From: an uncultured Bacilli bacterium
Lineage (GTDB): Bacteria > Bacillota_I > Bacilli_A > RF39 > UBA660
DNA length: 64,000 bases
Direction: 5' to 3'
Assembly (NCBI GenBank): GCA_947624515.1
Contig: CANQKN010000001.1
Location: forward strand, 5,811-69,810
The translations under genes and the position numbers were made by a program. This document shows positions 24,044 to 64,000 of the stretch, piece by piece (positions within the stretch are counted from its first letter, which is position 1; the number at the start of each line of letters is the position of its first letter). The notes beneath the pieces were generated by a model that was given only the letters and a program-made list of their open reading frames with translations, was not told the DNA's origin and searched no databases.

Positions 24044-26404
24044 TTACTTATCTCGTATTCTAGCATTTAATTTATTTTCTACAGTAGCAATGATGCGATT
24101 AAAAATTTCCATAACTTCTTCTTCATTTAGCGTTCTAGTTGCATCTTCAAAAACTAATGAGAAAGCTATACTACGTTCATTTTTTTCTATTTTATCTCCT
24201 TCATAAACATCAAAAATAGAAATATTTTTAAGAAGTTTACCGCCTTCTTTTTTGATCCATTTGATAAGTTCACTAGCTGGTGTTTTTTGATCTACTACAA
24301 AGGCTACATCTTTTATAATTCCAGGGAATTTAGAAATTTCTTTATACTGCATTGCCTTAGTACGGAAACTAAATAATTTTTCTAAATCCATTTCTAATAC
24401 ATAGGCATCATCTTTCATCACACTAGGATGGATTTTACCAAGAATTCCAATCTTTGTATCATTTAATATAATGGAAGCACTCTGGCCAGGATGAAGCTCA
24501 CTAGGAAGATCTTGTACCTGTAAACTATAACGATTTTGATATCCTAAATAGTCTAATAATTCTTCTAAGATTCCTTTTATTATATAAAAGTCTACTTTTT
24601 TAGGATGTAATCCTAAAGTATAAGTCCCAGTCATCAAAATAGCTAAATGGTTTGCTTCTTGATAACAATCATCTACTTTACCAAAACTTTTACCAATTTC
24701 ATAAATACAAATATCTTTATTACCACGAGCTTTATTATATTCATAAATACTAATTAATGATGGAAGTAAACTATGACGAAGTGTATTTCTATCTTCACTC
24801 ATAGGATCTAACACTTTAATCATTTCGAATTGATCTGTTGTATATTTTTTTACTTCTGTTTCAGGAATTAAGGCATAACTTAATGTTTCATTTAAACCAA
24901 GCATTGCTAGTTTGTTACGAATCTGACGGTTATTTTTATTAACTTTACCTGGTACTACTGGTAAAATCATTTGTTTTCCTTCAATGTGATCAATACCATA
25001 GATTCTACCTACTTCTTCTATTAAGTCTTCAGCAATAGAAATATCTGTTCTTCTAGTAGGTACTGTTACTATTATTTGCTCCTTTTCTATAACAGAAAAA
25101 CCTAAACGTTTAAAAATATCGATTACTGTTTCTTTATCTAAAGTAATTCCTAATACTTGATTAATTTTTTCTAATGTAATTTTGATTTCTTTTTCTGAAG
25201 TATCTATCTGATTGTATTCTACCATACCACCAACAATAGTAGCATCTGCATATTTTTCTAATAAGTGACAACTTCTTTCTATAGCCATGTAAGTTCTCTT
25301 AGGATCTAATCCTTTTTCAAAACGAGTGCTTGCTTCACTCCTTAAAATTTTCTTTGAGGTTTTACGAATTAAGGTTGGATGGAAAATAGCTGCTTCAATA
25401 ATAATATCTTTTGTGTCTTCCTCGATTTCTGTTGTAAGTCCTCCCATAACTCCAGCAAGTCCTACTGCTTCTTTTTCTGTTGCAATCACAATATCTTGAT
25501 CAGATAATAAACGCTCTTGTCCATCTAGAGTAGTTAATTTTTCATGATCTTTTGCCATTCTCACAATAATCTGATTACCTAGACGATTGCTATCATAATA
25601 ATGAAGTGGTTGACCTGTTTCTAGCATTACATAATTACTAATATCAACGACATTATTAATTGGTCGAATACCAGATGCTATTAAACGATTCTTGATAAAA
25701 TCAGGACTTTCCTTAATTACTACATTTTTTACTTTTTTAGCTAAAAATAGTGGGCAATTTTCGGTTTGAATTTCTAAAGAAAATTGAGTATTGATATCTT
25801 CTTGATTTTCTTGAAAACTTAAATCGATCTCTTTTACTTTTTTATTATATAAAGCACCAATTTCATATGCCATTCCTAAAATACTTAATAAATCACCACG
25901 GTTAGAAGTAAGTTCAAAATCAATTACTTCATCATCTAATTTTAAATAAGAAATAGGATCTTCACCAATAGGAGCATCTTGAGAAAGTTCATGAATTCCT
26001 GTAAAATCTTCTTCTTTTAAAAATTTATGTTCTAAGCCAAGTTCAGACATTGCACATAACATTCCATTAGATTCTTGCCCACGAATCATACCTTTTTTAA
26101 TTGTTCCATCAGGAAGTTCTGCTCCTACTAAAGCAACAATTACCTTTAATCCTTTTCTAACATTAGGTGCTCCACAAACAATCTGTAAAGTTTCTTTTCC
26201 AACATTAACTTTACATACATGTAAATGATCACTATCAGGATGAGGAATGCATTCTAATACTTCACCAATTACTAAATTGGTAGCTGGAATTAATTTGCTA
26301 CAAGAATCATATTCATTTCCGATACTAGTCATATCTTCAGCTAATTGTTTGGTATCTACATCAAGATCGATATAGTCACTTAAAAATTTTCTACTTAATT
26401 TCAT
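24044..26404 (-). CDS. pheT: Phenylalanine--tRNA ligase beta subunit
   Basis: ~790 aa with tRNA-binding, B3/B4, B5 and FDX-ACB domains. The N-terminus overlaps the pheS 3' end. Confidence 0.9.
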   Translation of the reverse strand: MKLSRKFLSDYIDLDVDTKQLAEDMTSIGNEYDSCSKLIPATNLVIGEVLECIPHPDSDHLHVCKVNVGKETLQIVCGAPNVRKGLKVIVALVGAELPDGTIKKGMIRGQESNGMLCAMSELGLEHKFLKEEDFTGIHELSQDAPIGEDPISYLKLDDEVIDFELTSNRGDLLSILGMAYEIGALYNKKVKEIDLSFQENQEDINTQFSLEIQTENCPLFLAKKVKNVVIKESPDFIKNRLIASGIRPINNVVDISNYVMLETGQPLHYYDSNRLGNQIIVRMAKDHEKLTTLDGQERLLSDQDIVIATEKEAVGLAGVMGGLTTEIEEDTKDIIIEAAIFHPTLIRKTSKKILRSEASTRFEKGLDPKRTYMAIERSCHLLEKYADATIVGGMVEYNQIDTSEKEIKITLEKINQVLGITLDKETVIDIFKRLGFSVIEKEQIIVTVPTRRTDISIAEDLIEEVGRIYGIDHIEGKQMILPVVPGKVNKNNRQIRNKLAMLGLNETLSYALIPETEVKKYTTDQFEMIKVLDPMSEDRNTLRHSLLPSLISIYEYNKARGNKDICIYEIGKSFGKVDDCYQEANHLAILMTGTYTLGLHPKKVDFYIIKGILEELLDYLGYQNRYSLQVQDLPSELHPGQSASIILNDTKIGILGKIHPSVMKDDAYVLEMDLEKLFSFRTKAMQYKEISKFPGIIKDVAFVVDQKTPASELIKWIKKEGGKLLKNISIFDVYEGDKIEKNERSIAFSLVFEDATRTLNEEEVMEIFNRIIATVENKLNARIRDK

Positions 26405-27443
26405 TTTCTTCATCCTTTCTATCAAATTGTTCTAAGAAGCGAATATCATTGGTGTATAAATAACGAATATCAGGAATCGCATAACGAAACATTGCAAAAC
26501 GATCAAGTCCAGTACCAAAAGCAAATCCTGTCCAAACTTCTGGATCGTATCCACCCATTCTAAGTACATTAGGATGAACCATACCAGCTCCTAGTACTTC
26601 TATCCAACCGGTTTGTTTACATAAAGAACAACCTTTACCACCACATTTGAAACAACTAACATCGACTTCTACACTAGGTTCGGTAAAAGGAAAGAAACTA
26701 GGACGAAAACGAACTTTGGTATTTTCTCCCAACATTTTTTTAGCAAATAATTCTAGGGTTCCTTTTAAATCAGCTAAACTTACGTTTTTATCAATTACTA
26801 ATCCTTCTACTTGACCAAATTGATGTGAATGTGTAGCATCATCATCACGACGGTATACTTTACCTGGACAAATCATACGAATTGGTGTTTTTTCTTGATT
26901 TTTTTGCATCGTTCTTGCTTGTACACTAGAAGTTTGTGTTCTAAGTAAATAATCAGAGTCAATATAGAAAGTATCTTGAGCATCTCTTGCTGGATGTCCA
27001 AGTGGTACATTTAATCTTTGAAAGCAATTCTCATCCGTTTCTACTTCTGGTCCATCTACAACATCGTATCCCATAGATACAAAGAAATCCTCTACATCTT
27101 CAATAATACGATTGAATGGATGACGGGAACCTTTTTTGATTTTATCACTAGGTAAACTAATATCAATGGTATCTTTTTCCAATTTCTTATTTAATTCTTC
27201 TAACTCTAATTCTTTTTCGATAGTAGAAAGTTTTTCCGTAACATATGTTCTAATTTCATTAGAAAGTTTTCCAACTTCTTTTCTTTCTTCTATCGATAAT
27301 TCTTTCATGTTACTCGTTAATTCAGTAACAAGTCCTTTTTTCCCGAAATATTTTACTTTTAAATCAGCTACTTCTTTTAAAGATTTTGTATTTATGATAT
27401 CTTGATCTAATTCTTCTTGAATCTTTTTCATTTGTTCTTTCAT
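26391..27443 (-). CDS. pheS: Phenylalanine--tRNA ligase alpha subunit
   Basis: Class II aaRS motifs (FRPSFFPFTEPS, GAGMVHP...GFAFGTGLDR). Confidence 0.9.
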   Translation of the reverse strand: MKEQMKKIQEELDQDIINTKSLKEVADLKVKYFGKKGLVTELTSNMKELSIEERKEVGKLSNEIRTYVTEKLSTIEKELELEELNKKLEKDTIDISLPSDKIKKGSRHPFNRIIEDVEDFFVSMGYDVVDGPEVETDENCFQRLNVPLGHPARDAQDTFYIDSDYLLRTQTSSVQARTMQKNQEKTPIRMICPGKVYRRDDDATHSHQFGQVEGLVIDKNVSLADLKGTLELFAKKMLGENTKVRFRPSFFPFTEPSVEVDVSCFKCGGKGCSLCKQTGWIEVLGAGMVHPNVLRMGGYDPEVWTGFAFGTGLDRFAMFRYAIPDIRYLYTNDIRFLEQFDRKDEENEIK

Positions 27444-27461: not shown

Positions 27462-27720
27462 TTCTGGAAAAGAAAAACGACTACTTGCCATAAGGGCGAA
27501 ATAGTCGCGGTACCACCTTAATTATAGATTTCTCTATATCTTATCCTTCGTAACGAGAAGTATTCGTCCATAGAAACTCCTAAGGTGAATTCATAAGACT
27601 TTATCACTTGTTTTCACCGACCACAAGCTCTCTACTAATAAAATTTCTTATTACTATTTCTTAATCACAGTCTTTTGCTTATCGACATAAATTATATAAT
27701 AAATTTTTCATTTATACAAG
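27462..27720 (-). promoter_or_regulatory. T-box riboswitch leader (Phe specifier UUC) with promoter and intrinsic terminator upstream of pheS
   Basis: Minus strand reads TTGTAT-N17-TATAAT, then AGAGA/AGTA elements, specifier-loop GAAUACUUCUCG, the T-box AAUUAAGGUGGUACCGCG, and terminator CGACUA...UAGUCG plus a U-tract. Confidence 0.8.
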
Positions 27721-57397: not shown

Positions 57398-58228
57398 TTA
57401 TTTTTTCTTCTCATAATTTTCTAAAAAGCTATGATATTTTCCCTCTTTTTTAATTCCTAGAACACAATTTAAATTAACATTATCTAAAGCTTTAAAAATA
57501 TTATAATCAATATTCTTATTTGTTTTTCGTAATTCTTGAATTAATTTTTTGATTTCTAATCTTTTGCTAGTACCATCATCTTGTATTACACAATTTTCTG
57601 TAAAACGACAAGCACAATTGATAAATGTTAATTCATTATATTTTTTCCAAGACAGAATATCTTCTTCTTTTACTAAATATAACGGACGAATTAATTCTAG
57701 TCCTTCAAAGTGATCACTATGTAATTTAGGCATCATTGTTTTCAATTCAGAACCATAAAACATCGATAAAAGAGTTGTTTCAATTACATCATTAAAATGA
57801 TGACCTAAGGCAATTTTATTGCATCCTAATTCTTTAGCTTTACTATATAAATATCCTCTTCTCATTCTCGCACATAAATAACATGGGCTTGAATCTATGG
57901 TGCTAACAATATTAAAAATATCACTATGAAACATCTGGATTGGAATATTTAAAATTTTTGCCATTTCCAAAATATGATCATGATTATTTTGATTGTAACC
58001 AGGATCCATGGCTACATAACATGCTTCAAATTTTATTTTACTATGCCTTGCTAGTTCTTGAATACATTTTGCTAATAAAAAGGAATCTTTTCCTCCACTA
58101 ATACAAACCATAATTTTATCATTTTCTTGAATAAGTTCATATTCTTGAACTGCTTTTACGAATTTACTCCAAATTTCTTTCCGAAATTTTTTAATAATGC
58201 TTCTTTCAATTTCTTGATATTTTTCCAT
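57398..58228 (-). CDS. TtcA-family PP-loop ATPase (tRNA 2-thiocytidine synthetase-like)
   Basis: PP-loop CISGGKDS, Cys cluster (SSPCYLCARMRRG) and GHHFNDVIET motif. Its stop lies inside a terminator hairpin (57384..57412). Confidence 0.65.
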   Translation of the reverse strand: MEKYQEIERSIIKKFRKEIWSKFVKAVQEYELIQENDKIMVCISGGKDSFLLAKCIQELARHSKIKFEACYVAMDPGYNQNNHDHILEMAKILNIPIQMFHSDIFNIVSTIDSSPCYLCARMRRGYLYSKAKELGCNKIALGHHFNDVIETTLLSMFYGSELKTMMPKLHSDHFEGLELIRPLYLVKEEDILSWKKYNELTFINCACRFTENCVIQDDGTSKRLEIKKLIQELRKTNKNIDYNIFKALDNVNLNCVLGIKKEGKYHSFLENYEKKK

Positions 58229-58911
58229 TATGATTTACTTTCTATATTTTCTTTTATGACTGTTTCTAATTTTTGATAAGTATCATGAATCATTTCATCT
58301 GTTAATTTCATATAGCCATTTGTTTGTTTTTCACTGATTCCTGTAGTCATAGAAGTAGCTTTTCCTTTTACAACACTTACAATGTTAGGGGCTGAAATTC
58401 TTTTTTCATCTATTGTTACTGAATTTCCTTCTTGATCTTTTAGTGTATAATCTTTTAAAACATTACCTAATAATTTGAGTAATTCATAATAAGAATTGGT
58501 TCCTTCTTTTTCAGTTACAGGATGATTTTCATCATCTAATACAATCGTGTCTCTTATTTCTTTTACATCAACATAATAGATCGTATCTGCTTTTAAATCT
58601 TTAGCAACATCTATTAAAGTAGGAAGAATACTTCTACACCATGGACATGTTGGAAATCCAAAGTATACAAGAAATGTTTCTTTGTTTTCAATCATTTTTA
58701 CAATATCACTTGCTTCTTTATAAACAAAAGGATTGTTTTTAGAAATATTAATTTCTCTAATTTCTTGACCATTATCATTTAAAGTATTATTCAAGTTCTC
58801 ATATTCTTTTTTGAATTTAAAACTATCTTGGGATACATAATTCGTATAGGAAATGATTCCTCCTAATGCTATTAATAATGCTCCTATTATCATAATGATT
58901 TGTTTTTTCAT
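58228..58911 (-). CDS. Membrane-anchored thioredoxin-fold protein (thiol-disulfide oxidoreductase-like)
   Basis: N-terminal TM anchor. Thioredoxin-like CPWC motif (FGFPTCPWCR). Confidence 0.55.
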   Translation of the reverse strand: MKKQIIMIIGALLIALGGIISYTNYVSQDSFKFKKEYENLNNTLNDNGQEIREINISKNNPFVYKEASDIVKMIENKETFLVYFGFPTCPWCRSILPTLIDVAKDLKADTIYYVDVKEIRDTIVLDDENHPVTEKEGTNSYYELLKLLGNVLKDYTLKDQEGNSVTIDEKRISAPNIVSVVKGKATSMTTGISEKQTNGYMKLTDEMIHDTYQKLETVIKENIESKS

Positions 58912-58915
58912 ACTA

Positions 58916-61141
58916 TTACCTCTTCTTTTTCTTATTTTCTTTTTTTAAATTTAGTCTTAGGGAATTCAGAACAACAGTTAAGCTACTAATCGTCATACTA
59001 ATTGATGCAATCATAGGATTCATAGAAAGTCCAAATTTTTTTCCTAATCCCATAGCAAGTGGAATCATGCAAATATTATAGAAAAAAGCCCAAAATAAAT
59101 TTTCTTTAATAATTCGTAATGTCTTTTTACTGATTGTGAAAAAATCTAGTATCCTTTCTAAGTTATCTTGCATTAAAATGACATCAGCAGAATCAATAGC
59201 AATATCGGTACCACTATGAATGCTAATTCCAATATTACTAGTTGCTAAACTTGGAGCATCGTTAATACCATCTCCAACCATCATAACATTATGTTTACTA
59301 GCAAGCAATTGTTGTATGACTTTGGTCTTTTCTTGAGGGATTACATTAGCAATTACTTCATCAATTCCAATATCTTTTGCTATTATATTTGCTGTATTCT
59401 CATTATCACCTGTTAACATTATAACATATTTTCCCATTCTTTTTAGTCTTTCTATAGTAATTTTTGCATTTTCGCGTACAATATCTTTGACACCAATTAA
59501 TCCAATAACTTCTTGATCTTCTATCACATAAACAATGCTATTTCCTGATGTTACTAATTTTTGTTCTTCTTTTAGATATGGATTAGCTATTTTTACTTTT
59601 TGAAATAACTTATTATTTCCTAAAAAATATTCTTTTTGGAAAATCTTACCTGTTAAACCAATCCCATCTATTGTTTGAAAATCTGTTACTTGGCTGAAAG
59701 AAATTTTTTGTTTTTCGGCATAATCCTTAAAGGCCTTGGCAATAGGATGATCAGAATTTTTCTCAATACTAGTAACTAATTGCATGAATTCTGGTTCAGT
59801 ATATTTCTTATTATGATAAATTTTAGAAATTTTTAAATTTCCATATGTTAATGTTCCCGTTTTATCAAAAATAACTGTATCTATTTTTTTGGCATTTTCT
59901 AAAGTTTCACTTTGCTTAATAAGAATTCCTTTTTTTGCTGCACTACCTTCACTAACTACTATTGCTAATGGCGTTGCTAATCCTAATGCACAAGGACAAG
60001 CAACTACTAGTACACTTACAAAAGAAGTAAGCGCATCTTTCAAAGAAAATCCTACTAATAAATAGCCAATGAATGTTACAAGGGAAATCAGAATAATAGT
60101 AGGTACAAAATAACTACTAATCTTATCAGCAATTCTTTGAATTGGTGCTTTGGTAGAAGTTGCTTCTACTACTAATCTCACAATTTCTGAAATTGTAGTT
60201 TCCTTTCCTATTTTTTCAGCTTGGTATTCAATGTAACCATCCATATTGATACTACCTGCTATTACTCTATCATTCTTTTTCTTCTTAACAGGTGTTGATT
60301 CTCCTGTTAGAAAAGATTCTTCTAAATGGGCTTCTCCAGATATGATGATACCATCTACTGCTATTTTCATACCTGGTTTACAAATTAAAATATCTTTTTT
60401 ATTAATTTCATCAATTGTTACTTCTTTTTCTTTTTCACCTTGTTTTAAAAGAGCAGTTGTAGGAGTAATTTGAACTAGTTCTTTTAAGGCTTCTTTTGTT
60501 TTTTCTTTGTTTTTATGATCAATATATCTTCCTAACTTAATAAAGAAAAGAATTACGCAACAGGATTCGAAATAGATATTTTGAACACTTATCGATTTTT
60601 TTAAAAATAGAAGAACCATATTCCATAAACTATAGATAAAATTTGCTCCTACTCCTATGGTAACTAAAGTATCCATATTCGGTGTTTTATGAAGAAAATT
60701 TTTAACACCGCTTTTTAAAATATCTCTACTATAAATTAGGAACAAGATGGTTAAAAAGAAAAGACAACTTGTATAAGAAATAGGATTTTTCTCCATATCC
60801 AAAAATGGAATATTAGGTAATCTTAACATATGTGACATTGAAAGATATAAAACAAACATGGTAAGAAAAGCAAATCCTATTAATTTCTTTTTTTCCTCTT
60901 TTTGATTTTCTTCTTCAAATTTTTCTTGAAAAACACCTAAACTTTCAAAACCAGCTTTTTCGATCATTTTTTCTAAATCTGTTATTGTTAAAAAATCTTC
61001 ATATTCAATTAGTGCTTGGGCTAAAACTAAATTGACACTTGCATGAATGATTCCTTTTTGTTTATTTAAATTTTTTTCTAATCCTGATGAACAACCGCTA
61101 CAGCTCATTCCGCCAATTTTTAAAATTATTTTCTTCATCAC
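58916..61141 (-). CDS. copA: Copper-translocating P1B-type ATPase
   Basis: N-terminal HMA motif GMSCSGC, CPC transmembrane motif (ACPCALGLATP), DKTGTLT phosphorylation site, and GDGINDAP. Confidence 0.9.
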   Translation of the reverse strand: MMKKIILKIGGMSCSGCSSGLEKNLNKQKGIIHASVNLVLAQALIEYEDFLTITDLEKMIEKAGFESLGVFQEKFEEENQKEEKKKLIGFAFLTMFVLYLSMSHMLRLPNIPFLDMEKNPISYTSCLFFLTILFLIYSRDILKSGVKNFLHKTPNMDTLVTIGVGANFIYSLWNMVLLFLKKSISVQNIYFESCCVILFFIKLGRYIDHKNKEKTKEALKELVQITPTTALLKQGEKEKEVTIDEINKKDILICKPGMKIAVDGIIISGEAHLEESFLTGESTPVKKKKNDRVIAGSINMDGYIEYQAEKIGKETTISEIVRLVVEATSTKAPIQRIADKISSYFVPTIILISLVTFIGYLLVGFSLKDALTSFVSVLVVACPCALGLATPLAIVVSEGSAAKKGILIKQSETLENAKKIDTVIFDKTGTLTYGNLKISKIYHNKKYTEPEFMQLVTSIEKNSDHPIAKAFKDYAEKQKISFSQVTDFQTIDGIGLTGKIFQKEYFLGNNKLFQKVKIANPYLKEEQKLVTSGNSIVYVIEDQEVIGLIGVKDIVRENAKITIERLKRMGKYVIMLTGDNENTANIIAKDIGIDEVIANVIPQEKTKVIQQLLASKHNVMMVGDGINDAPSLATSNIGISIHSGTDIAIDSADVILMQDNLERILDFFTISKKTLRIIKENLFWAFFYNICMIPLAMGLGKKFGLSMNPMIASISMTISSLTVVLNSLRLNLKKENKKKKR

Positions 61142-61170: not shown

Positions 61171-61470
61171 TTAAGAATCTAATTTCTTAATTAAATCCAT
61201 GACTTCATCCATCATTTCTAATTTATTATTTTGAATATCTTTTATCACACAAGTTGATAAATGATTTTTTAAAATTCTCTGTCCAATACCTTTTAATGAT
61301 TTCGTAACAGCAGATAATTGAATTAAGATATCACCACAATATCGATTTTCTTCAATCATATTATTAATTCCTCGAACCTGACCTTCGATTGTTTTTAATC
61401 TGGTTTGCAGGTATTTTTTTTCTTCATCTGTTCTCAGTGTTGTCTTTTGACAACTGGCTTGCTTTTCCAT
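61171..61470 (-). CDS. csoR: CsoR-family copper-sensing transcriptional repressor
   Basis: RLKTIEGQVRGINNMIEENRYCGDILIQL matches the CsoR signature, including the Cu-ligand Cys. The true start is probably ATG at 61470 (MEKQAS...), not the track GTG at 61485, which would sit on the -10 box. Confidence 0.85.
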   Translation of the reverse strand: MEKQASCQKTTLRTDEEKKYLQTRLKTIEGQVRGINNMIEENRYCGDILIQLSAVTKSLKGIGQRILKNHLSTCVIKDIQNNKLEMMDEVMDLIKKLDS

Positions 61471-61475
61471 TATTT

Positions 61476-61527
61476 TTATCACCACAAAAATTATACCACC
61501 CCCTAGGGGTGGTAGTCAATTAAAATA
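61476..61527 (-). promoter_or_regulatory. csoR-copA promoter with an embedded GC-rich CsoR-type operator
   Basis: Minus strand reads TTGACT-ACCACCCCTAGGGGGTGG-TATAAT. The near-perfect inverted repeat TACCACCCC(C)TAGGGGTGGTA (61494..61514) fills the spacer between a -35 and a -10 box. It is a strikingly GC-rich palindrome in an AT-rich genome. Confidence 0.6.
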
Positions 61528-61535
61528 TTGTTTTT

Positions 61536-61985
61536 TTATAAGCTACTTAATTTTTCTTTCACAATCGCAGATACTGTTCCCATGTCTGCTTTTCCTTTGA
61601 TTAATGGTGTAATTTTACCCATTACTTTTCCCATATCTTTCATACCAGTGGGATTCATTTCTACAAATACTTGTTGAATTATTTCTTTTAATTTTTCTTC
61701 TGATAATTGTTCAGGAAGGTACTTATTTAAAATCTCAATTTCCATTTTTGTTTTATCAATTAAATCTTGTCTAGCGCCTTTTTCAAATTCTTTAATTGAT
61801 TCATTTCTAGTTTTTATTTCTTTGGAAACTACTTCAATTAATAATTCATCGTTGATTTCTTTCTTATAGTCAATACTTTGTAGTTTCATAGCACCTTTTA
61901 CACCACGAAGTGTTGCTAGGCAAACACTATCCTTTGCTTTCATAGCATTGATGATATCTTGATCTAATTCTTGTACTAAATCCAT
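61536..61985 (-). CDS. yqeY: GatB/YqeY domain protein
   Basis: 149 aa. YqeY-family helical protein. Conserved rpsU-yqeY pairing. Confidence 0.8.
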   Translation of the reverse strand: MDLVQELDQDIINAMKAKDSVCLATLRGVKGAMKLQSIDYKKEINDELLIEVVSKEIKTRNESIKEFEKGARQDLIDKTKMEIEILNKYLPEQLSEEKLKEIIQQVFVEMNPTGMKDMGKVMGKITPLIKGKADMGTVSAIVKEKLSSL

Positions 61986-62022: not shown

Positions 62023-62223
62023 TTAGTCTCTATTTTTATTTGCTTTATTGCGCTTACGAGTATTCTTAATGCCTTCTTTTTTAGCATTTCTTCTTTTTAC
62101 TCCTGGTTTATCATAAGCTTCTCTTTTTTTGCATTCAGAAGGGACTCCATCTCTAGCAACTTTTTGTTTAAATTTCTTTAATGCAAATTCAAGATTTCCA
62201 TTTTTTACCGCTACCTGTGTCAT
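62023..62223 (-). CDS. rpsU: 30S ribosomal protein S21
   Basis: 66 aa, highly basic. The MTQVAVKNGNLEFALKKFKQK sequence is typical of S21. Confidence 0.9.
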   Translation of the reverse strand: MTQVAVKNGNLEFALKKFKQKVARDGVPSECKKREAYDKPGVKRRNAKKEGIKNTRKRNKANKNRD

Positions 62224-62350: not shown

Positions 62351-62608
62351 TTACTTATTTTTAAATAAATATTTTTTCTTAATTTCTTCTTGCTTTGTTA
62401 TTGGAAGACTAGAATTTGTAGTTAAAATCTTATTTATGATACATTCAATTTCATCAGAATAAGATGGATCGTCAATTAAATCCATTACTGTCTGCTTCAT
62501 GTCATGTTCTAATTCAATATCTTTTAACCATTTTTCTTCTTCTGCTGTTAAATCAATTCCTAACTTTTCTTTTAATACAACCTCAATAATATCAAATTGT
62601 ATTTTCAT
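62351..62608 (-). CDS. Small acidic helical protein (85 aa from MKIQFD...) with its own consensus promoter; candidate bacteriocin immunity protein
   Basis: AGGAGA ribosome binding site 6 nt before the ATG at 62608. A TTGACA-N16-TATAAT promoter lies immediately upstream (62628..62655). It sits next to the bacteriocin locus. The longer track ORF start (MIIERID...) would include the ribosome binding site and promoter. Confidence 0.4.
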   Translation of the reverse strand: MKIQFDIIEVVLKEKLGIDLTAEEEKWLKDIELEHDMKQTVMDLIDDPSYSDEIECIINKILTTNSSLPITKQEEIKKKYLFKNK

Positions 62609-62627
62609 ATTCTCTCTCCTTGCCATT

Positions 62628-62655
62628 ATTATAGCTACTTTTTTGCTTTTGTCAA
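62628..62655 (-). promoter_or_regulatory. Consensus sigma-A type promoter (TTGACA-16-TATAAT) for the 85-aa gene
   Basis: Perfect -35 and -10 hexamers at a 16-nt spacing, ~20 nt upstream of the ribosome binding site/ATG. Confidence 0.45.
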
Positions 62656-62705
62656 TTCTTTCTATGATCAAATATTATTAGGCTATCTATTTCTTTTTAA
62701 AATAA

Positions 62706-62730
62706 AAAAGGGAACGAATCCCTTTAAAAA
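62706..62730 (-). terminator. Rho-independent terminator ending the bacteriocin operon
   Basis: aaaggga-acgaa-tcccttt stem overlapping the stop of the 59-aa ORF. T-tract on the minus strand. Confidence 0.45.
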
Positions 62731-62903
62731 ACTACTAATTCATATAAGCACCTTAAAAAAGTACCAACATAAGTACCAAGATTTAATATGGCACTTAATA
62801 TAAGCTCAGTTAAAATTAAAAATAGAGGTAACATTATCAAGATGATAATAAAACGAAAAACATGTTCATGATTTTTATAGATTTTTTTTATTTCATAGGA
62901 CAT
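62724..62903 (-). CDS. Small hydrophobic membrane protein (59 aa); candidate class IIb bacteriocin immunity protein; not in the ORF track
   Basis: MSYEIKKIYKNHEHVFRFIIILIMLPLFLILTELILSAILNLGTYVGTFLRCLYELVVF. The ATG overlaps the 3' end of the second bacteriocin gene by 16 nt in another frame. One or two TM helices. Terminated by the hairpin. Confidence 0.4.
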   Translation of the reverse strand: MSYEIKKIYKNHEHVFRFIIILIMLPLFLILTELILSAILNLGTYVGTFLRCLYELVVF

Positions 62904-63061
62904 AAATTATGACTACCTATTCTGATAATAGCACTTCCTAAGGCTTGTCCAGCTGAATATATAAATTTTGCAGCTGATGTAAATGCATTGATAATAGTTC
63001 CTGTAATATTGAAACCACCTACAATCGATAATAGTTCTTGATTACTTAAATTTTGATTCAT
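62888..63061 (-). CDS. Double-glycine-leader bacteriocin precursor, peptide 2 (57 aa); not in the ORF track
   Basis: MNQNLSNQELLSIVGG|FNITGTIINAFTSAAKFIYSAGQALGSAIIRIGSHNLCPMK. The leader fits the consensus L(-12)S(-11)xxE(-8)L(-7)xxI(-4)xGG exactly. The mature 41-aa peptide has a GxxxG motif (GQALG). AGGAGG ribosome binding site 7 nt upstream. Confidence 0.6.
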   Translation of the reverse strand: MNQNLSNQELLSIVGGFNITGTIINAFTSAAKFIYSAGQALGSAIIRIGSHNLCPMK

Positions 63062-63072
63062 TATTTCTCCTC

Positions 63073-63210
63073 CTAGTTACATTTTAGTGGACGAGCAATT
63101 CCATCGATTACTCCTACAATAAATATGACTGCCGACACGATTCCGGCAACAGCCCAGAAACCAATTCCACCTTTTGTTTCTATTAATTCTTCTTGGTTCA
63201 TTCTTTCCAT
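63073..63210 (-). CDS. Double-glycine-leader bacteriocin precursor, peptide 1 (45 aa); not in the ORF track
   Basis: MERMNQEELIETKGG|IGFWAVAGIVSAVIFIVGVIDGIARPLKCN. GG-type leader with E(-8) and L(-7). The mature 30-aa peptide is hydrophobic with GxxxG (GVIDG) and small-residue motifs. GGAGG ribosome binding site 6 nt upstream. It lies 11 nt upstream of peptide 2. Confidence 0.6.
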   Translation of the reverse strand: MERMNQEELIETKGGIGFWAVAGIVSAVIFIVGVIDGIARPLKCN

Positions 63211-63656
63211 ATACTGCCTCCTTTTATAAATTCTAATAGATATTCAAAAATAGTTTCTCTTTTTCGTAAAAGATAACAATTTGTGATAATAGCATTTGTA
63301 TGATAGTTATAGGGGTCGATATAGATCGTTTGATAAATAATATTATTTATATTTGTATAGTCTTTTTCAATATTTAAAATTGTATAATGATATTTTTGAT
63401 TATCAATATATAAAATACTATTTTTTTCCAATATTGGAACTTTTTCACTCTCTGTTATCATAGAAAAATGATCTTCATTTTTGATTAAAGTATATTTTTC
63501 ATATACTTCTATATGGAATTTACATATTATCAATATTATCCCTACTGTAGTTAAAAATAGAAACAGGAAACTTCCCGCTTTTTTTAAATGAATTTCCTTT
63601 ATTGTTTCATAATCAGAAAGGTCCCAATTATTTTTCATAACTAATACCTTCTTCAA
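63198..63656 (-). CDS. Small bitopic membrane protein (152 aa) between the ABC transporter and the bacteriocin peptides; possibly a truncated HlyD/LcnD-type accessory or immunity protein
   Basis: Short cytoplasmic N-terminus, one TM helix (FLFLFLTTVGIILIIC), and a ~110-aa exodomain. It overlaps the ABC transporter 3' end by 29 nt and the peptide 1 start by 13 nt. Confidence 0.35.
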   Translation of the reverse strand: MKKVLVMKNNWDLSDYETIKEIHLKKAGSFLFLFLTTVGIILIICKFHIEVYEKYTLIKNEDHFSMITESEKVPILEKNSILYIDNQKYHYTILNIEKDYTNINNIIYQTIYIDPYNYHTNAIITNCYLLRKRETIFEYLLEFIKGGSIWKE

Positions 63657-64000
63657 TAAAATATTTTTGAGTAAATAAGTCTTGATTATGAAAACGGTGG
63701 GAAATCACAATAAATGTTTTATCAGAATATTTTTGAAATAAATTTTTTAAAATAATTCTTTCTTTTTCAATATCAATTTCATTTAATGATTCATCCAATA
63801 TATATATTTTTGCGTCTTTTAACAATGCTCTTGCCAAAATGATTCTTTGTCTTTGCCCCCCACTAATATTAAAGCCATTTTCTTCTAATAACATGTGGTA
63901 ATCTAAAATATTTTTTTCTGCAAATTCATCAATCATGCAATCTTTAGCAATGTTTAAAAAATCATCATAATCTACTGTTTTATCTAGTACTATATTTTGA
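63628..64000 (-). CDS. ABC transporter ATP-binding domain, C-terminal part (gene continues beyond the window end); candidate bacteriocin export/processing transporter
   Basis: ABC signature ISGGQRQR, Walker B IYILDES, and H-loop VISHR. The reading frame stays open to position 64000, so the N-terminus (a TMD, and possibly a C39 peptidase) lies outside the window. Confidence 0.7.
   Translation of the reverse strand, partial: QNIVLDKTVDYDDFLNIAKDCMIDEFAEKNILDYHMLLEENGFNISGGQRQRIILARALLKDAKIYILDESLNEIDIEKERIILKNLFQKYSDKTFIVISHRFHNQDLFTQKYFIEEGISYEK

Follow-up and report, generated by a model that had tools for sequence, protein, structure and literature searches.

A gene for a small, predicted membrane protein overlapping a bacteriocin-type peptide gene is a candidate for producer self-protection in uncultured gut Bacilli

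The window, by which we mean the whole 64,000-nucleotide stretch of DNA analysed here, carries a compact gene cassette that reads, in order, as a peptidase-C39 ABC exporter, a protein with one transmembrane (TM) segment, two short peptide precursors (peptide 1 and peptide 2) and a 59-codon open reading frame, ORF59, followed by a terminator (Table 1). The same order holds for the cassette in general, in which a one-TM protein of ~140–150 amino acids is often present. This arrangement is best explained as a compact two-peptide bacteriocin cassette of the class IIb type in which ORF59 comes fifth and last. An earlier note on this DNA had singled out ORF59 as a likely immunity gene; the coordinates and the translation that it gave match ours exactly (minus strand, 59 residues), as does the 16-nt overlap with the peptide-2 gene in another frame, a count that includes the stop codon of the latter.

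Table 1 Features of the cassette, listed in ascending coordinates of the window
Feature	Coordinates	Strand	Basis and details
Intrinsic terminator of the operon	62699..62725	minus	Scan: AAAGGGA-TTCGT-TCCCTTT hairpin at 62725..62707, followed by a T run; 7-bp stem, 5-nt loop
ORF59, gene for a small membrane protein (predicted), 59 aa	62724..62903	minus	ORF call; ATG 62903..62901, TAA 62726..62724
Overlap of the peptide-2 gene and ORF59, 16 nt	62888..62903	minus	Sequence; peptide 2 ends ...CPMK-TAA
Peptide 2 precursor, 57 aa	62888..63061	minus	Double-glycine leader MNQNLSNQELLSIVGG; 41-aa mature part
Peptide 1 precursor, 45 aa	63073..63210	minus	Leader MERMNQEELIETKGG; 30-aa mature part
One-TM protein, ~145–152 aa, between exporter and peptides	63198..63656	minus	ORF call; N-terminal TM segment
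Peptidase-C39 ABC exporter gene, 3′ end; runs off the window	63628..64000	minus	ABC_tran match

The mature part of peptide 1 contains a GxxxG motif (GVIDG) and ends in RPLKCN, and the peptide scores 22.9 bits against TIGR03949, the class IIb lactobin A/cerein 7B family, passing the cut-off of 21.5. Peptide 2 has a GQALG (GxxxG) core and a single cysteine in its mature part, with G38, G42, R47 and C54 invariant in the alignment; against the same model it reaches 14.8 bits, below the cut-off. Alignments show that the double-glycine leaders and the GxxxG cores are conserved in both peptides. The peptide 1 family comprises ~520 clusters, some of which carry the NCBI name 'class IIb bacteriocin, lactobin A/cerein 7B family [Bacilli bacterium]'. 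Full-length orthologues of the exporter at five related loci (L002, L003, L007, L044 and L048) combine Peptidase_C39, ABC_membrane and ABC_tran domains, and the exporter matches TIGR01193 (bacteriocin_ABC) with an E-value of 1e-114 and 384 bits, below the curated cut-off of 524 bits. The one-TM protein, which may in fact begin at the ATG at 63635, matches the NCBIfam MAG1140 family with an E-value of 8.6e-7 (29.2 bits, short of the required 35) and has a homologue in most, not all, related loci. We regard it as a putative export accessory protein and also as a rival candidate for the immunity function (PMC2850506). Literature searches returned no paper on the cassette, on MAG1140/Mbov_0121 or on mycoplasma bacteriocins.

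The start codon of ORF59 lies inside the peptide-2 gene and is assembled from the last base of a leucine codon and the TG of the codon for the conserved cysteine (TTA TGT, read A-TG). This Leu-Cys construction recurs in 24 of 29 distinct loci, with an overlap of 13 or 16 nt in most. Upstream of ORF59 there is no strong Shine-Dalgarno sequence, only GGTAG. Since the ATG is embedded in peptide 2 and the ribosome-binding site is weak, we infer that ribosomes completing peptide 2 probably go straight on to translate ORF59. A programmed −1 frameshift fusing the two products was considered and rejected, because the A-run at the junction in the window is not conserved in L002, L003 and L004 and the junction contains no slippery heptamer. 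At one other locus (L038), peptide 2 and ORF59 form a natural in-frame fusion that arose via a deletion. At its 3′ end, ORF59 runs up to the terminator, the stem of which begins within the stop codon. The earlier note had the frame ending inside the hairpin; the two do adjoin, but 'ends at the foot of' is the better wording because the 5′ foot of the stem takes in only the last two bases of the TAA. L001, L002 and L003 each have a hairpin at this point too, its loop and stem differing in sequence.

ORF59 is a real gene that codes for a protein and is subject to purifying selection. At the 27% G+C of the window, a stop codon is expected about every 11 codons and a run of 59 open codons has a probability of ~0.003. 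In each of the five alternative frames, this stretch contains 4–10 stops. The frame is open over exactly 59 codons in three independently assembled relatives (L001, L002 and L003; 64–69% identity). Comparison with these relatives, along the lines of the Ka/Ks analysis that the earlier note had proposed, gave dN/dS values of 0.14–0.28 over the non-overlapping codons, comparable to those of peptide 2 (0.12–0.38). Synonymous sites of ORF59 changed more often than nonsynonymous ones (Fisher p 1e-6 to 5e-4), and the C-terminal 23 codons hold 0–5 nonsynonymous against 3–11 synonymous changes, with dN ~0. It is thus extremely improbable that ORF59 is a chance open frame that borrows its conservation from the peptide-2 overlap or from constraints on the terminator RNA. 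The frame does overlap one gene, abut the terminator and possess a weak ribosome-binding site, but the peptide-2 overlap covers 16 of 180 nt and the hairpin 2 nt, and we reject a chance frame on the concentration of substitutions at synonymous sites, the closure of every other frame and the recovery of the family by protein profile across 30–70% identity.

The encoded product is a small, strongly hydrophobic and probably single-pass membrane protein, in agreement with the earlier description of a small hydrophobic protein. Residues 1–17 are basic, residues ~18–40 strongly hydrophobic, and residues 41–59 form a conserved tail (NLGTYVGTFLRCLYELVVF). The best 19-residue Kyte-Doolittle mean is 2.9 (residues 18–36), compared with a family median of 2.5, and AlphaFold2 (AF2) run with 63 sequences models one continuous helix over residues 13–58 (pLDDT 86). 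The net charge is +2.8 in the N-terminal flank and +0.8 in the C-terminal flank, and the N-terminal value is the higher one in 70 of 86 family members; by the positive-inside rule, this charge bias favours an N-in/C-out topology. The N-terminus carries neither a double-glycine motif nor an export leader, and the protein would therefore stay in the membrane of the producer.

An exhaustive HMMER search recovered 36 representatives at E ≤ 1e-3, all of them 52–93 residues long and matched end to end. Common to them are basic residues at the N-terminus, a single strongly hydrophobic stretch and, at the C-terminus, the near-universal motif GxxxG[TS]xxR (84 of 86 distinct members). Residues G43, G47 and R51 of this motif are invariant throughout; P26, Y45, T48 and F49 are nearly so. 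The family, in outline one of 52–62-residue proteins, is unnamed. ORF59 has no Pfam match at E ≤ 1, and none of 40 family members matches an immunity family, including EntA_Immun and Abi/CAAX, at E ≤ 0.1. NCBIfam returned only a spurious PcxA match (E 0.07), a PDB profile search gave no relatives and no solved structure, and neither a metagenome scan with the ORF59 alignment itself nor a plasmid tblastn for ORF59 and peptide 1 found anything. Peptides 1 and 2 each have a cysteine near the end, as do about half of the ORF59-type proteins (within the last 10 residues in 33 of 62 members). C52 of the window protein is not conserved, and a disulfide between it and the single cysteine of either peptide was left as an idea only.

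Look-ups of nine family members gave the same exporter–peptide cassette in all nine cases, and in the contexts that we read, a 45-residue and a ~56-residue double-glycine peptide are followed by a family gene overlapping peptide 2 and then by a terminator. The cassette lies beside rpsU-yqeY, ftsA-ftsZ, obg or a methyltransferase gene and therefore moves as a unit. Across at least four different genomic neighbourhoods, ORF59 accompanies the peptides as the last gene of a two-peptide operon with double-glycine leaders and a C39 exporter.

The neighbourhoods also bear on whether the cassette is a weapon at all. It is distinctly unlikely, in our view, that it is instead a vertically inherited membrane-peptide system in the producer's envelope, engaged in signalling or membrane physiology, with ORF59 as a resident subunit. 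Such a system would fit the strong conservation of the peptides (dN/dS 0.09–0.3; 15 invariant positions in peptide 1 across sequences of 42–91% identity), the location, in organisms that have diverged, beside core genes such as rpsU-yqeY, ftsAZ and obg, and the weak matches of exporter and accessory protein to the families Mbov_0121 and MAG1140 of minimal-genome Mycoplasma; no cassette contains a regulator, an inducer peptide or a kinase. It fits poorly with a peptide 1 above the curated cut-off of a class IIb family, with double-glycine leaders, GxxxG cores and a C39 exporter that together make up the canonical bacteriocin set, and with a third gene, ORF59, that can be lost. The differing neighbourhoods, two of them among close relatives (L001 versus L002), indicate mobility. 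Bacteriocin loci typically evolve fast, and the unusual conservation of these peptides and of the cassette, often among core genes, is atypical of them and counts against an immunity role for ORF59.

The best reading of ORF59, to which we assign a probability of about 0.6, is that it is the producer's self-protection (immunity) protein, as judged from its sequence features and by analogy with known systems. Against this stands the lack of any sequence relation to a named immunity family, and also the pattern of loss. Peptide 1 alone was used to recruit loci, of which 32 could be assessed: 23 have an intact family member directly after peptide 2 and one has a diverged 47-residue version; in the remaining eight, ORF59 is absent, decayed, frameshifted or fused while the peptides are retained. 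The earlier note had held that disruption of the frame beside intact peptides would refute immunity: such cases do occur in distant relatives, but none was found among the close relatives of the window. At L032/L035, the ATG is followed by a TAA at codon 2 and the decayed pseudogene retains 51% identity, against 82% for the intact ORF59 of the sister loci L031/L036. Peptides 1 and 2 of L032/L035 are intact, with dN/dS of 0.32 and 0.10, which shows purifying selection after the loss of ORF59. In L016 the gene is frameshifted, possibly by an assembly error, and in L011, L014, L015 and L040 there is no ORF59 and the terminator directly follows peptide 2. An ABC ATPase gene lies after peptide 2 in L011; its replacing ORF59 as an ABC-type immunity transporter was rejected, because the sister locus L016 has rpsU at that position. 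ORF59 is dispensable in some lineages, and these losses weigh against immunity because a gene that alone protected against an expressed toxin, and was indispensable for this, would not be expected to go first.

Loss would be more easily tolerated in a helper than in an antidote. ORF59 could accordingly be imagined as a membrane partner of the exporter, of the ~150-residue one-TM protein or of both, handing over, orienting or assembling the peptides and perhaps holding peptide 2-like helices during secretion, in which case its loss would lower output, not survival. We consider this role rather unlikely. It agrees with the presence of ORF59 always inside the exporter–peptide cassette and never as an orphan, with a motif that resembles the cargo peptide 2, and with the observation that most loci without ORF59 also have no recognisable accessory gene (L011, L014, L016, L040 and L032). 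However, class II bacteriocin exporters are not known to have a third component of this kind. The association with the accessory gene is moreover loose, seven loci having ORF59 with no detectable accessory homologue and L015 having the accessory gene alone, as scored with an accessory-protein HMM of limited sensitivity. Position, size and predicted topology of ORF59 fit documented short immunity proteins (PMC6957408).

The same losses raise the question of whether the ~150-residue protein provides immunity alone or mainly, with ORF59 in a minor or modulatory role such as tuning activity or target range. Reviews state that the class IIb accessory protein 'may be involved in immunity' (PMC2850506, PMC10059821), and the protein of this cassette is membrane-anchored and conserved in most loci. 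The dispensability of ORF59 in some lineages also fits. This division of labour is nevertheless unlikely: no accessory gene could be detected in 12 or more of the loci that have the peptides, and the ORF59 motif, with its three invariant residues and a dN of ~0 over 23 codons, is much more conserved than a minor modulator would lead one to expect.

We noticed a resemblance between the tail of ORF59 and peptide 2. An hhalign comparison placed ORF59 residues 33–59 on peptide-2 residues 28–54 (P 0.004, probability 8.6%), and when the ORF59-family HMM was run on 37 genuine peptide-2 sequences and on shuffled versions of each, 34 outscored 95% of their shuffles, every time in a single register that sets GxxxG on GxxxG. 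Peptide 1 failed the same shuffle test (5 of 37). At ~5 bits on average the resemblance is weak, and similar demands of helix packing could have produced it by convergence. Covariation specific to a locus was not detected: ORF59 shares 2.39 identities with its own peptide 2 and 2.29 with those of other loci (permutation p 0.34), and gene conversion or covariation between the two was rejected on this result. A 'G-R' co-occurrence (Fisher p 4e-4) was not relied on, as the statistic ignores phylogeny.

Because the conserved ORF59 motif resembles the peptide 2 core, the likeness suggests that the putative immunity protein may act as a membrane-tethered decoy. Its basic N-terminus would face the cytoplasm, and the conserved G43xxxG47-T-x-x-R51 stretch would lie in or just beyond the outer leaflet, presenting a tethered helix with a peptide 2-like GxxxG[ST]x[IL]R core. 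This helix might pack on incoming peptide 1, or take the place of peptide 2 on the target; either route would block the active helix–helix complex of the two peptides in the producer's own membrane. Coupled translation would tie the dose of ORF59 to toxin synthesis.

The helices of peptide 1, peptide 2 and ORF59 follow a common plan, namely a hydrophobic helix, a GxxxG motif and an arginine about one turn later. A more specific proposal makes ORF59 a membrane-anchored derivative or mimic of the β-peptide (peptide 2), that is, a toxin-derived antidote in a three-way helix packing in the outer leaflet. Its boldest version would see in the cassette not primarily a weapon but a long-lived membrane-peptide system that uncultured gut Bacilli inherit largely vertically, ORF59 being the resident subunit. 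This proposal is improbable.

Returning to the immunity reading, the locus offers a very small and well-defined candidate, in which G43, G47 and R51 are invariant and the motif mirrors the core of one toxin peptide, and natural 'knock-out' lineages exist for comparison. The decoy model is therefore directly testable with a 59-residue protein and two short synthetic peptides. The ORF59-type partner appears in only ~38 public clusters and has never been named, compared with the ~520 clusters of peptide 1; small overlapping genes are probably missed systematically in bacteriocin surveys of gut metagenomes.

Class IIb immunity genes are described as sharing an operon with the genes for the two peptides (PMC2850506). 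The earlier note had called small membrane proteins in this position the usual immunity proteins. Such proteins are documented, namely CbnZ, BrcI, EnkIaz and AbpIM (42, 53, 52 and 55 residues; PMC6957408) and GIP (PMC10100652), but 'usual' overstates the case, as the majority of class IIb immunity proteins are a good deal longer, with several TM domains (PMC6957408). LagC and LciM, which confer immunity to lactococcins G and MN, and the Abi/CAAX-type PlnI, PlnL and SkkI are likewise membrane proteins encoded with two-peptide bacteriocins (PMC8538875). They are 110–257 residues long with at least four TM domains, whereas ORF59 has one TM segment and no family match, and those of the Abi type are putative membrane proteases (PMC8538875). 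BrcI, EnkIaz and AbpIM are closer to ORF59 in size class and are encoded beside double-glycine two-peptide structural genes; profile libraries link ORF59 to no named immunity family.

CbnZ shares with ORF59 its very small size (42 versus 59 residues), a single TM segment, the lack of a leader and a gene within the bacteriocin cluster. Its N-in/C-out topology was established experimentally with pho-lac fusions (PMC6957408), while that of ORF59 is predicted from charge bias, and its protection is demonstrated where that of ORF59 is putative. ORF59 further differs in overlapping the peptide-2 gene, in having no detectable similarity to any annotated family, and in a longer, highly conserved and predicted extracytoplasmic tail with the invariant GxxxG..R.

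In genomic position, the likeness extends to GIP of gallocin A (gllA2-gllA1-gip; PMC10100652), which is also small, hydrophobic and encoded by the third gene after two peptide genes. GIP and the gallocin peptides have been modelled as disulfide-stabilised helical hairpins, whereas AF2, with 3 as with 63 sequences, models ORF59 as one uninterrupted helix, and peptides 1 and 2 can form no intramolecular disulfide because each has a single cysteine. The resemblance of ORF59 to peptide 2 is accordingly one of linear motif and not of hairpin fold. GIP, which is experimentally necessary and sufficient for immunity, has been proposed to protect by its likeness to the bacteriocin peptides, slipping in between them (PMC10100652), and the conserved motif of ORF59 is likewise peptide 2-like.

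ORF59, the 59-codon frame that closes the two-peptide bacteriocin cassette, is a real gene, and it lies on the minus strand, a small correction to its earlier description. At the window's G+C content of 27%, a random frame meets a stop roughly every 11 codons, giving a probability of ~0.003 for 59 open codons, and each of the five other frames over the same 180 nt contains 4–10 stops. A search of 5.8 billion proteins returned the window's own ORF59 and two homologues at 66–69% identity, and a genome scan added a fourth sequence (64% identity) from a MAG labelled 'uncultured Bacilli bacterium'. ORF59 keeps a length of exactly 59 codons and a 16-nt overlap with peptide 2 in these three relatives, where a hairpin terminator of differing sequence adjoins it. 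The Ka/Ks check across homologous loci proposed in the earlier note bears out coding constraint, with a dN/dS of 0.14–0.28 over the non-overlapping codons 7–59, compared with 0.12–0.38 for peptide 2 (synonymous versus nonsynonymous sites in ORF59, Fisher p 1e-6 to 5e-4). Since the last 23 codons carry 0–5 nonsynonymous versus 3–11 synonymous differences, conservation acts at the protein rather than the RNA level. No second ORF59 copy was found within the window.

The minus strand across 62640..63300 forms one tight operon, in which each peptide ORF opens with a double-glycine leader (MERMNQEELIETKGG and MNQNLSNQELLSIVGG). The ORF59 ATG consists of the last base of the peptide 2 Leu53 codon and the TG of the Cys54 codon, confirming from the sequence that the gene starts in another frame, 16 nt before the peptide 2 gene ends. 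It had also been described as ending inside the terminator hairpin; contact between the two holds, as the last two bases of its TAA stop (62726..62724) belong to the 5' foot of the hairpin AAAGGGA/TCCCTTT, which is followed by a T run, but ORF59 ends at this foot and not within the hairpin.

Features of the operon and other elements in the window
Feature	Position	Strand	Remark
ABC-transporter gene, end only		-	first in operon order; ABC_tran match
152-aa ORF (accessory protein)	63198..63656	-	one hydrophobic segment, N-terminal
45-aa ORF (peptide 1)	63073..63210	-	AAAGGAGG ahead of start
57-aa ORF (peptide 2)	62888..63061	-	AGGAGGAG ahead of start
59-aa ORF (ORF59)	62724..62903	-	last in operon order
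Small acidic protein	62351..62671	-	85 aa from ATG at 62608, 106 aa from upstream TTG
Promoter-like match	62655..62628	-	perfect TTGACA-16-TATAAT, ahead of acidic protein
rpsU	62023..62223		
yqeY	61536..61985		
CsoR-type metal-sensing repressor	61171..61485	-	Trns_repr_metal
Heavy-metal P-type ATPase	58916..61141	-	HMA domain; adjoins repressor
Thioredoxin-like protein	58228..58911	-	227 aa, membrane-anchored, CPWC motif
T-box leader	27489..27677	-	Rfam RF00230, 118 bits
Gene downstream of T-box leader	26391..27443		

The unusual start is shared widely: of 29 distinct loci, 24 form the ATG from the TG of the conserved peptide 2 Cys codon and the base ahead of it. The others have their ATG a few codons upstream of that point, and ORF59 overlaps peptide 2 in every case. 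Unlike the near-perfect Shine-Dalgarno sites at both peptide genes, the site ahead of ORF59 is weak (GGTAG/GGAAG within Gly-Ser codons of peptide 2), and termination-reinitiation may couple ORF59 translation to that of peptide 2.

All nine look-ups of ORF59 family members, from 69% down to ~35% identity, showed the same compact cassette, made up of a C39-ABC exporter (~693 aa), a 139–152-aa one-TM protein, a 45–46-aa peptide, a 54–57-aa peptide and ORF59, the last two overlapping by 13–16 nt; no orphan ORF59 was seen among them. Neighbourhoods vary, with rpsU-yqeY adjoining in the window and in the related loci L001, L003 and L004, a methyltransferase gene in L002, a nuclease gene on one side and ftsA-ftsZ on the other in L007 and L044, and obg following in L048; ORF59 is therefore part of a unit that moves or persists together. 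Placement directly upstream of rpsU-yqeY also occurs in L014, L016, L032 and L035, is followed in some loci by yabP-yqfD, and is kept across organisms that share only ~40–90% identity in peptide 1. Bacteriocin loci do not usually keep such a place among core genes for so long, and the atypical conservation of the cassette, like its nearness to these genes, counts against reading ORF59 as an immunity protein.

Several loci lack the accessory gene, with only a few bases left between the end of the exporter gene and peptide 1, and others have a 45–49-aa one-TM ORF in its place (loci concerned: L011, L014, L016 and L040; L031, L032, L035 and L036). Four loci without it also have no intact ORF59, a loose association given the limited sensitivity of the accessory HMM. 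The accessory protein gave a sub-threshold match to the NCBIfam MAG1140 family (E 8.6e-7), and the exporter (L002:290-2374) scored 324 bits (cut-off 500) as a Mbov_0121-family peptidase-domain ABC transporter. Both families were defined on Mycoplasma/Mycoplasmopsis proteins, hinting that a related exporter pair may exist in mollicutes; no literature on the function of the MAG1140/Mbov_0121 pair was found.

Between the cassette terminator and rpsU, the small acidic protein yielded no family match and has homologues of 98–102 aa at the equivalent place in L001, L003 and L004. The thioredoxin-like protein, ~4 kb downstream of the cassette, scores 22.1 bits with Pfam Thioredoxin, just under the cut-off of 23.5, and peptides 1 and 2 each contain one invariant Cys. 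Gallocin A activity needs a surface thioredoxin-like protein (PMC10100652), and a link to the cassette peptides is no more than a lead here. The CsoR-type repressor and P-type ATPase are an ordinary copper-efflux pair, with no relation to ORF59, and nothing in the window but the T-box leader reaches an Rfam gathering threshold.

For a linkage test, metagenome contigs were scanned with the peptide 1 alignment alone, so that loci were not recruited through ORF59, and every ORF in the 33 true loci was then searched with three HMMs, one each for peptide 1, peptide 2 and ORF59. Peptide 2 follows peptide 1 in 33/33 loci. Leaving out L021, which ends too early, 23 of 32 loci have an intact ORF59 family member right behind peptide 2, one (L039) a divergent 47-aa protein with the same layout, one (L038) a peptide 2–ORF fusion through deletion, and one (L016) the conserved body with its ATG in a different frame; the third gene is lacking in six (L011, L014, L015, L032, L035 and L040). 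Linkage of ORF59 to the peptide pair is thus strong, not obligatory. In L038 (198-452), the deletion makes an in-frame junction between residues 1–41 of peptide 2 and the downstream small protein from its residue 5 on, giving an 84-aa product with a double-glycine leader; the two genes are separate in the near-identical L039 (3644-3942), and the fusion may exist naturally or stem from misassembly. Metagenome assembly errors could likewise explain L016.

Among the six losses, L011, L014, L015 and L040 have a terminator directly 3' of peptide 2, and L032 and L035 carry clear pseudogenes that start ATG-TAA. The two remnants (~170 nt, conserved flanks) are only 51% identical, whereas the sisters L031/L036 share 82% in their intact gene, and such decay is not attributable to assembly error. 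Their peptide genes are intact, with a dN/dS of 0.32 (peptide 1) and 0.10 (peptide 2). Frame disruption beside retained peptides, which the earlier note named as refuting immunity, thus occurs in distant relatives; none was found in close relatives of the window.

When 1.84 billion cluster representatives were searched exhaustively with HMMER and a three-sequence profile, 36 homologues came up at E<=1e-3, all of 52–93 aa and matched end to end, and a second, indexed search with a 40-sequence profile gave 38 clusters, none with a Pfam domain and with 'hypothetical protein' as the sole source name. No relatives were found in Pfam, NCBIfam, PDB or plasmids, nor any name, profile or paper in databases and a literature search. 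Because 72% of the loci recruited by peptide 1 carry ORF59 despite its ~38 protein clusters (~520 for peptide 1), gene finders probably under-call it. The family alignment shows a basic N-terminus, a hydrophobic stretch with an almost invariant Pro (P26), and a C-terminal block, [FL]N[LI]G-x-Y-x-G-T-F-[LI]-R-x-[LV]-[YF]-x-x-V-V, in which G43, G47 and R51 are invariant; GxxxG[TS]xxR is present in 84 of 86 distinct members.

The best 19-residue Kyte-Doolittle mean is 2.9 in the window's ORF59 (residues 18–36), with a family median of 2.5. Net charge is +2.8 in the N-flank versus +0.8 in the C-flank (N>C in 70/86), predicting an N-in/C-out topology by the positive-inside rule. AF2 models gave a single helix over residues 2–58 from 3 sequences (pLDDT 88), and a helix over 3–11 plus one continuous helix over 13–58 from 63 sequences (pLDDT 86), with a hairpin fold in neither. 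A bilayer is thinner than a 46-residue helix is long. ORF59 is likely a single-pass anchor at about residues 18–40, whose helix likely runs on to place the GxxxG-T..R block in or just beyond the outer leaflet.

A hydrophobic helix with GxxxG and an Arg about one turn on is common to ORF59, peptide 1 (invariant G33, D36, G37, R40, P41, L42 and C44) and peptide 2 (invariant G38, G42, R47 and C54). With hhalign, ORF59 residues 33–59 align to peptide 2 residues 28–54 (P 0.004, probability only 8.6%). The ORF59 HMM scored 34 of 37 distinct peptide 2 sequences above 95% of 200 of their own shuffles (median empirical p 0.005), and 22 of 29 sequences passed the reciprocal test, counts that are not independent, the sequences being related; peptide 1 remained at background (5/37). 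Alignments to peptide 2 share one register, its first GxxxG glycine at HMM position 43, the best pairing L040 peptide 2 (LLELGRTFGTSIRRLYDRKLC) with the family consensus (IFNLGTYLGTFLRNLYELVV). Locus-specific covariation of ORF59 with its own peptide 2 was not detected. This family-level resemblance is real but weak, and could stem either from descent of ORF59 from peptide 2 or from convergence of the two on a shared surface for helix packing.

Peptide 1 scores above the curated TIGR03949 (NCBIfam) cut-off, and some of its homologues already bear the NCBI name 'class IIb bacteriocin, lactobin A/cerein 7B family [Bacilli bacterium]', which makes the surrounding system one of a recognised kind. 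In class IIb loci the immunity gene shares the operon of the two peptide genes, and the accessory protein may contribute to immunity too (PMC2850506), making the one-TM accessory protein a rival candidate here. We put the probability that ORF59 is an immunity protein at roughly 0.6, held down by the loss lineages L032/L035, which keep constrained peptides. A specialist would find the existence of such a protein no surprise; its value lies in a compact testable model, combining an invariant motif that mirrors the toxin, a start codon within the toxin's Cys codon and natural loss lineages.

Immunity proteins described so far are all membrane-associated (PMC8538875). ORF59 resembles published class IIb examples in position, size, absence of a leader and predicted topology: CbnZ (42 aa) has one TMD and is N-in/C-out, and BrcI (53 aa), EnkIaz (52 aa) and AbpIM (55 aa) are, like CbnZ, as short as ORF59, most others being longer (PMC6957408). 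The third gene of gallocin A, gip, is both required and sufficient for immunity, its product being proposed to resemble the peptides and intercalate between them (PMC10100652). With its peptide 2-like GxxxG..R block, ORF59 may work in a similar way, although its shape would be a straight single-pass helix, not a hairpin; that it acts as a decoy is a tentative and rather doubtful proposal. Overall, ORF59 would belong with the short membrane immunity-type proteins of two-peptide bacteriocins, as a family that itself appears to be new.
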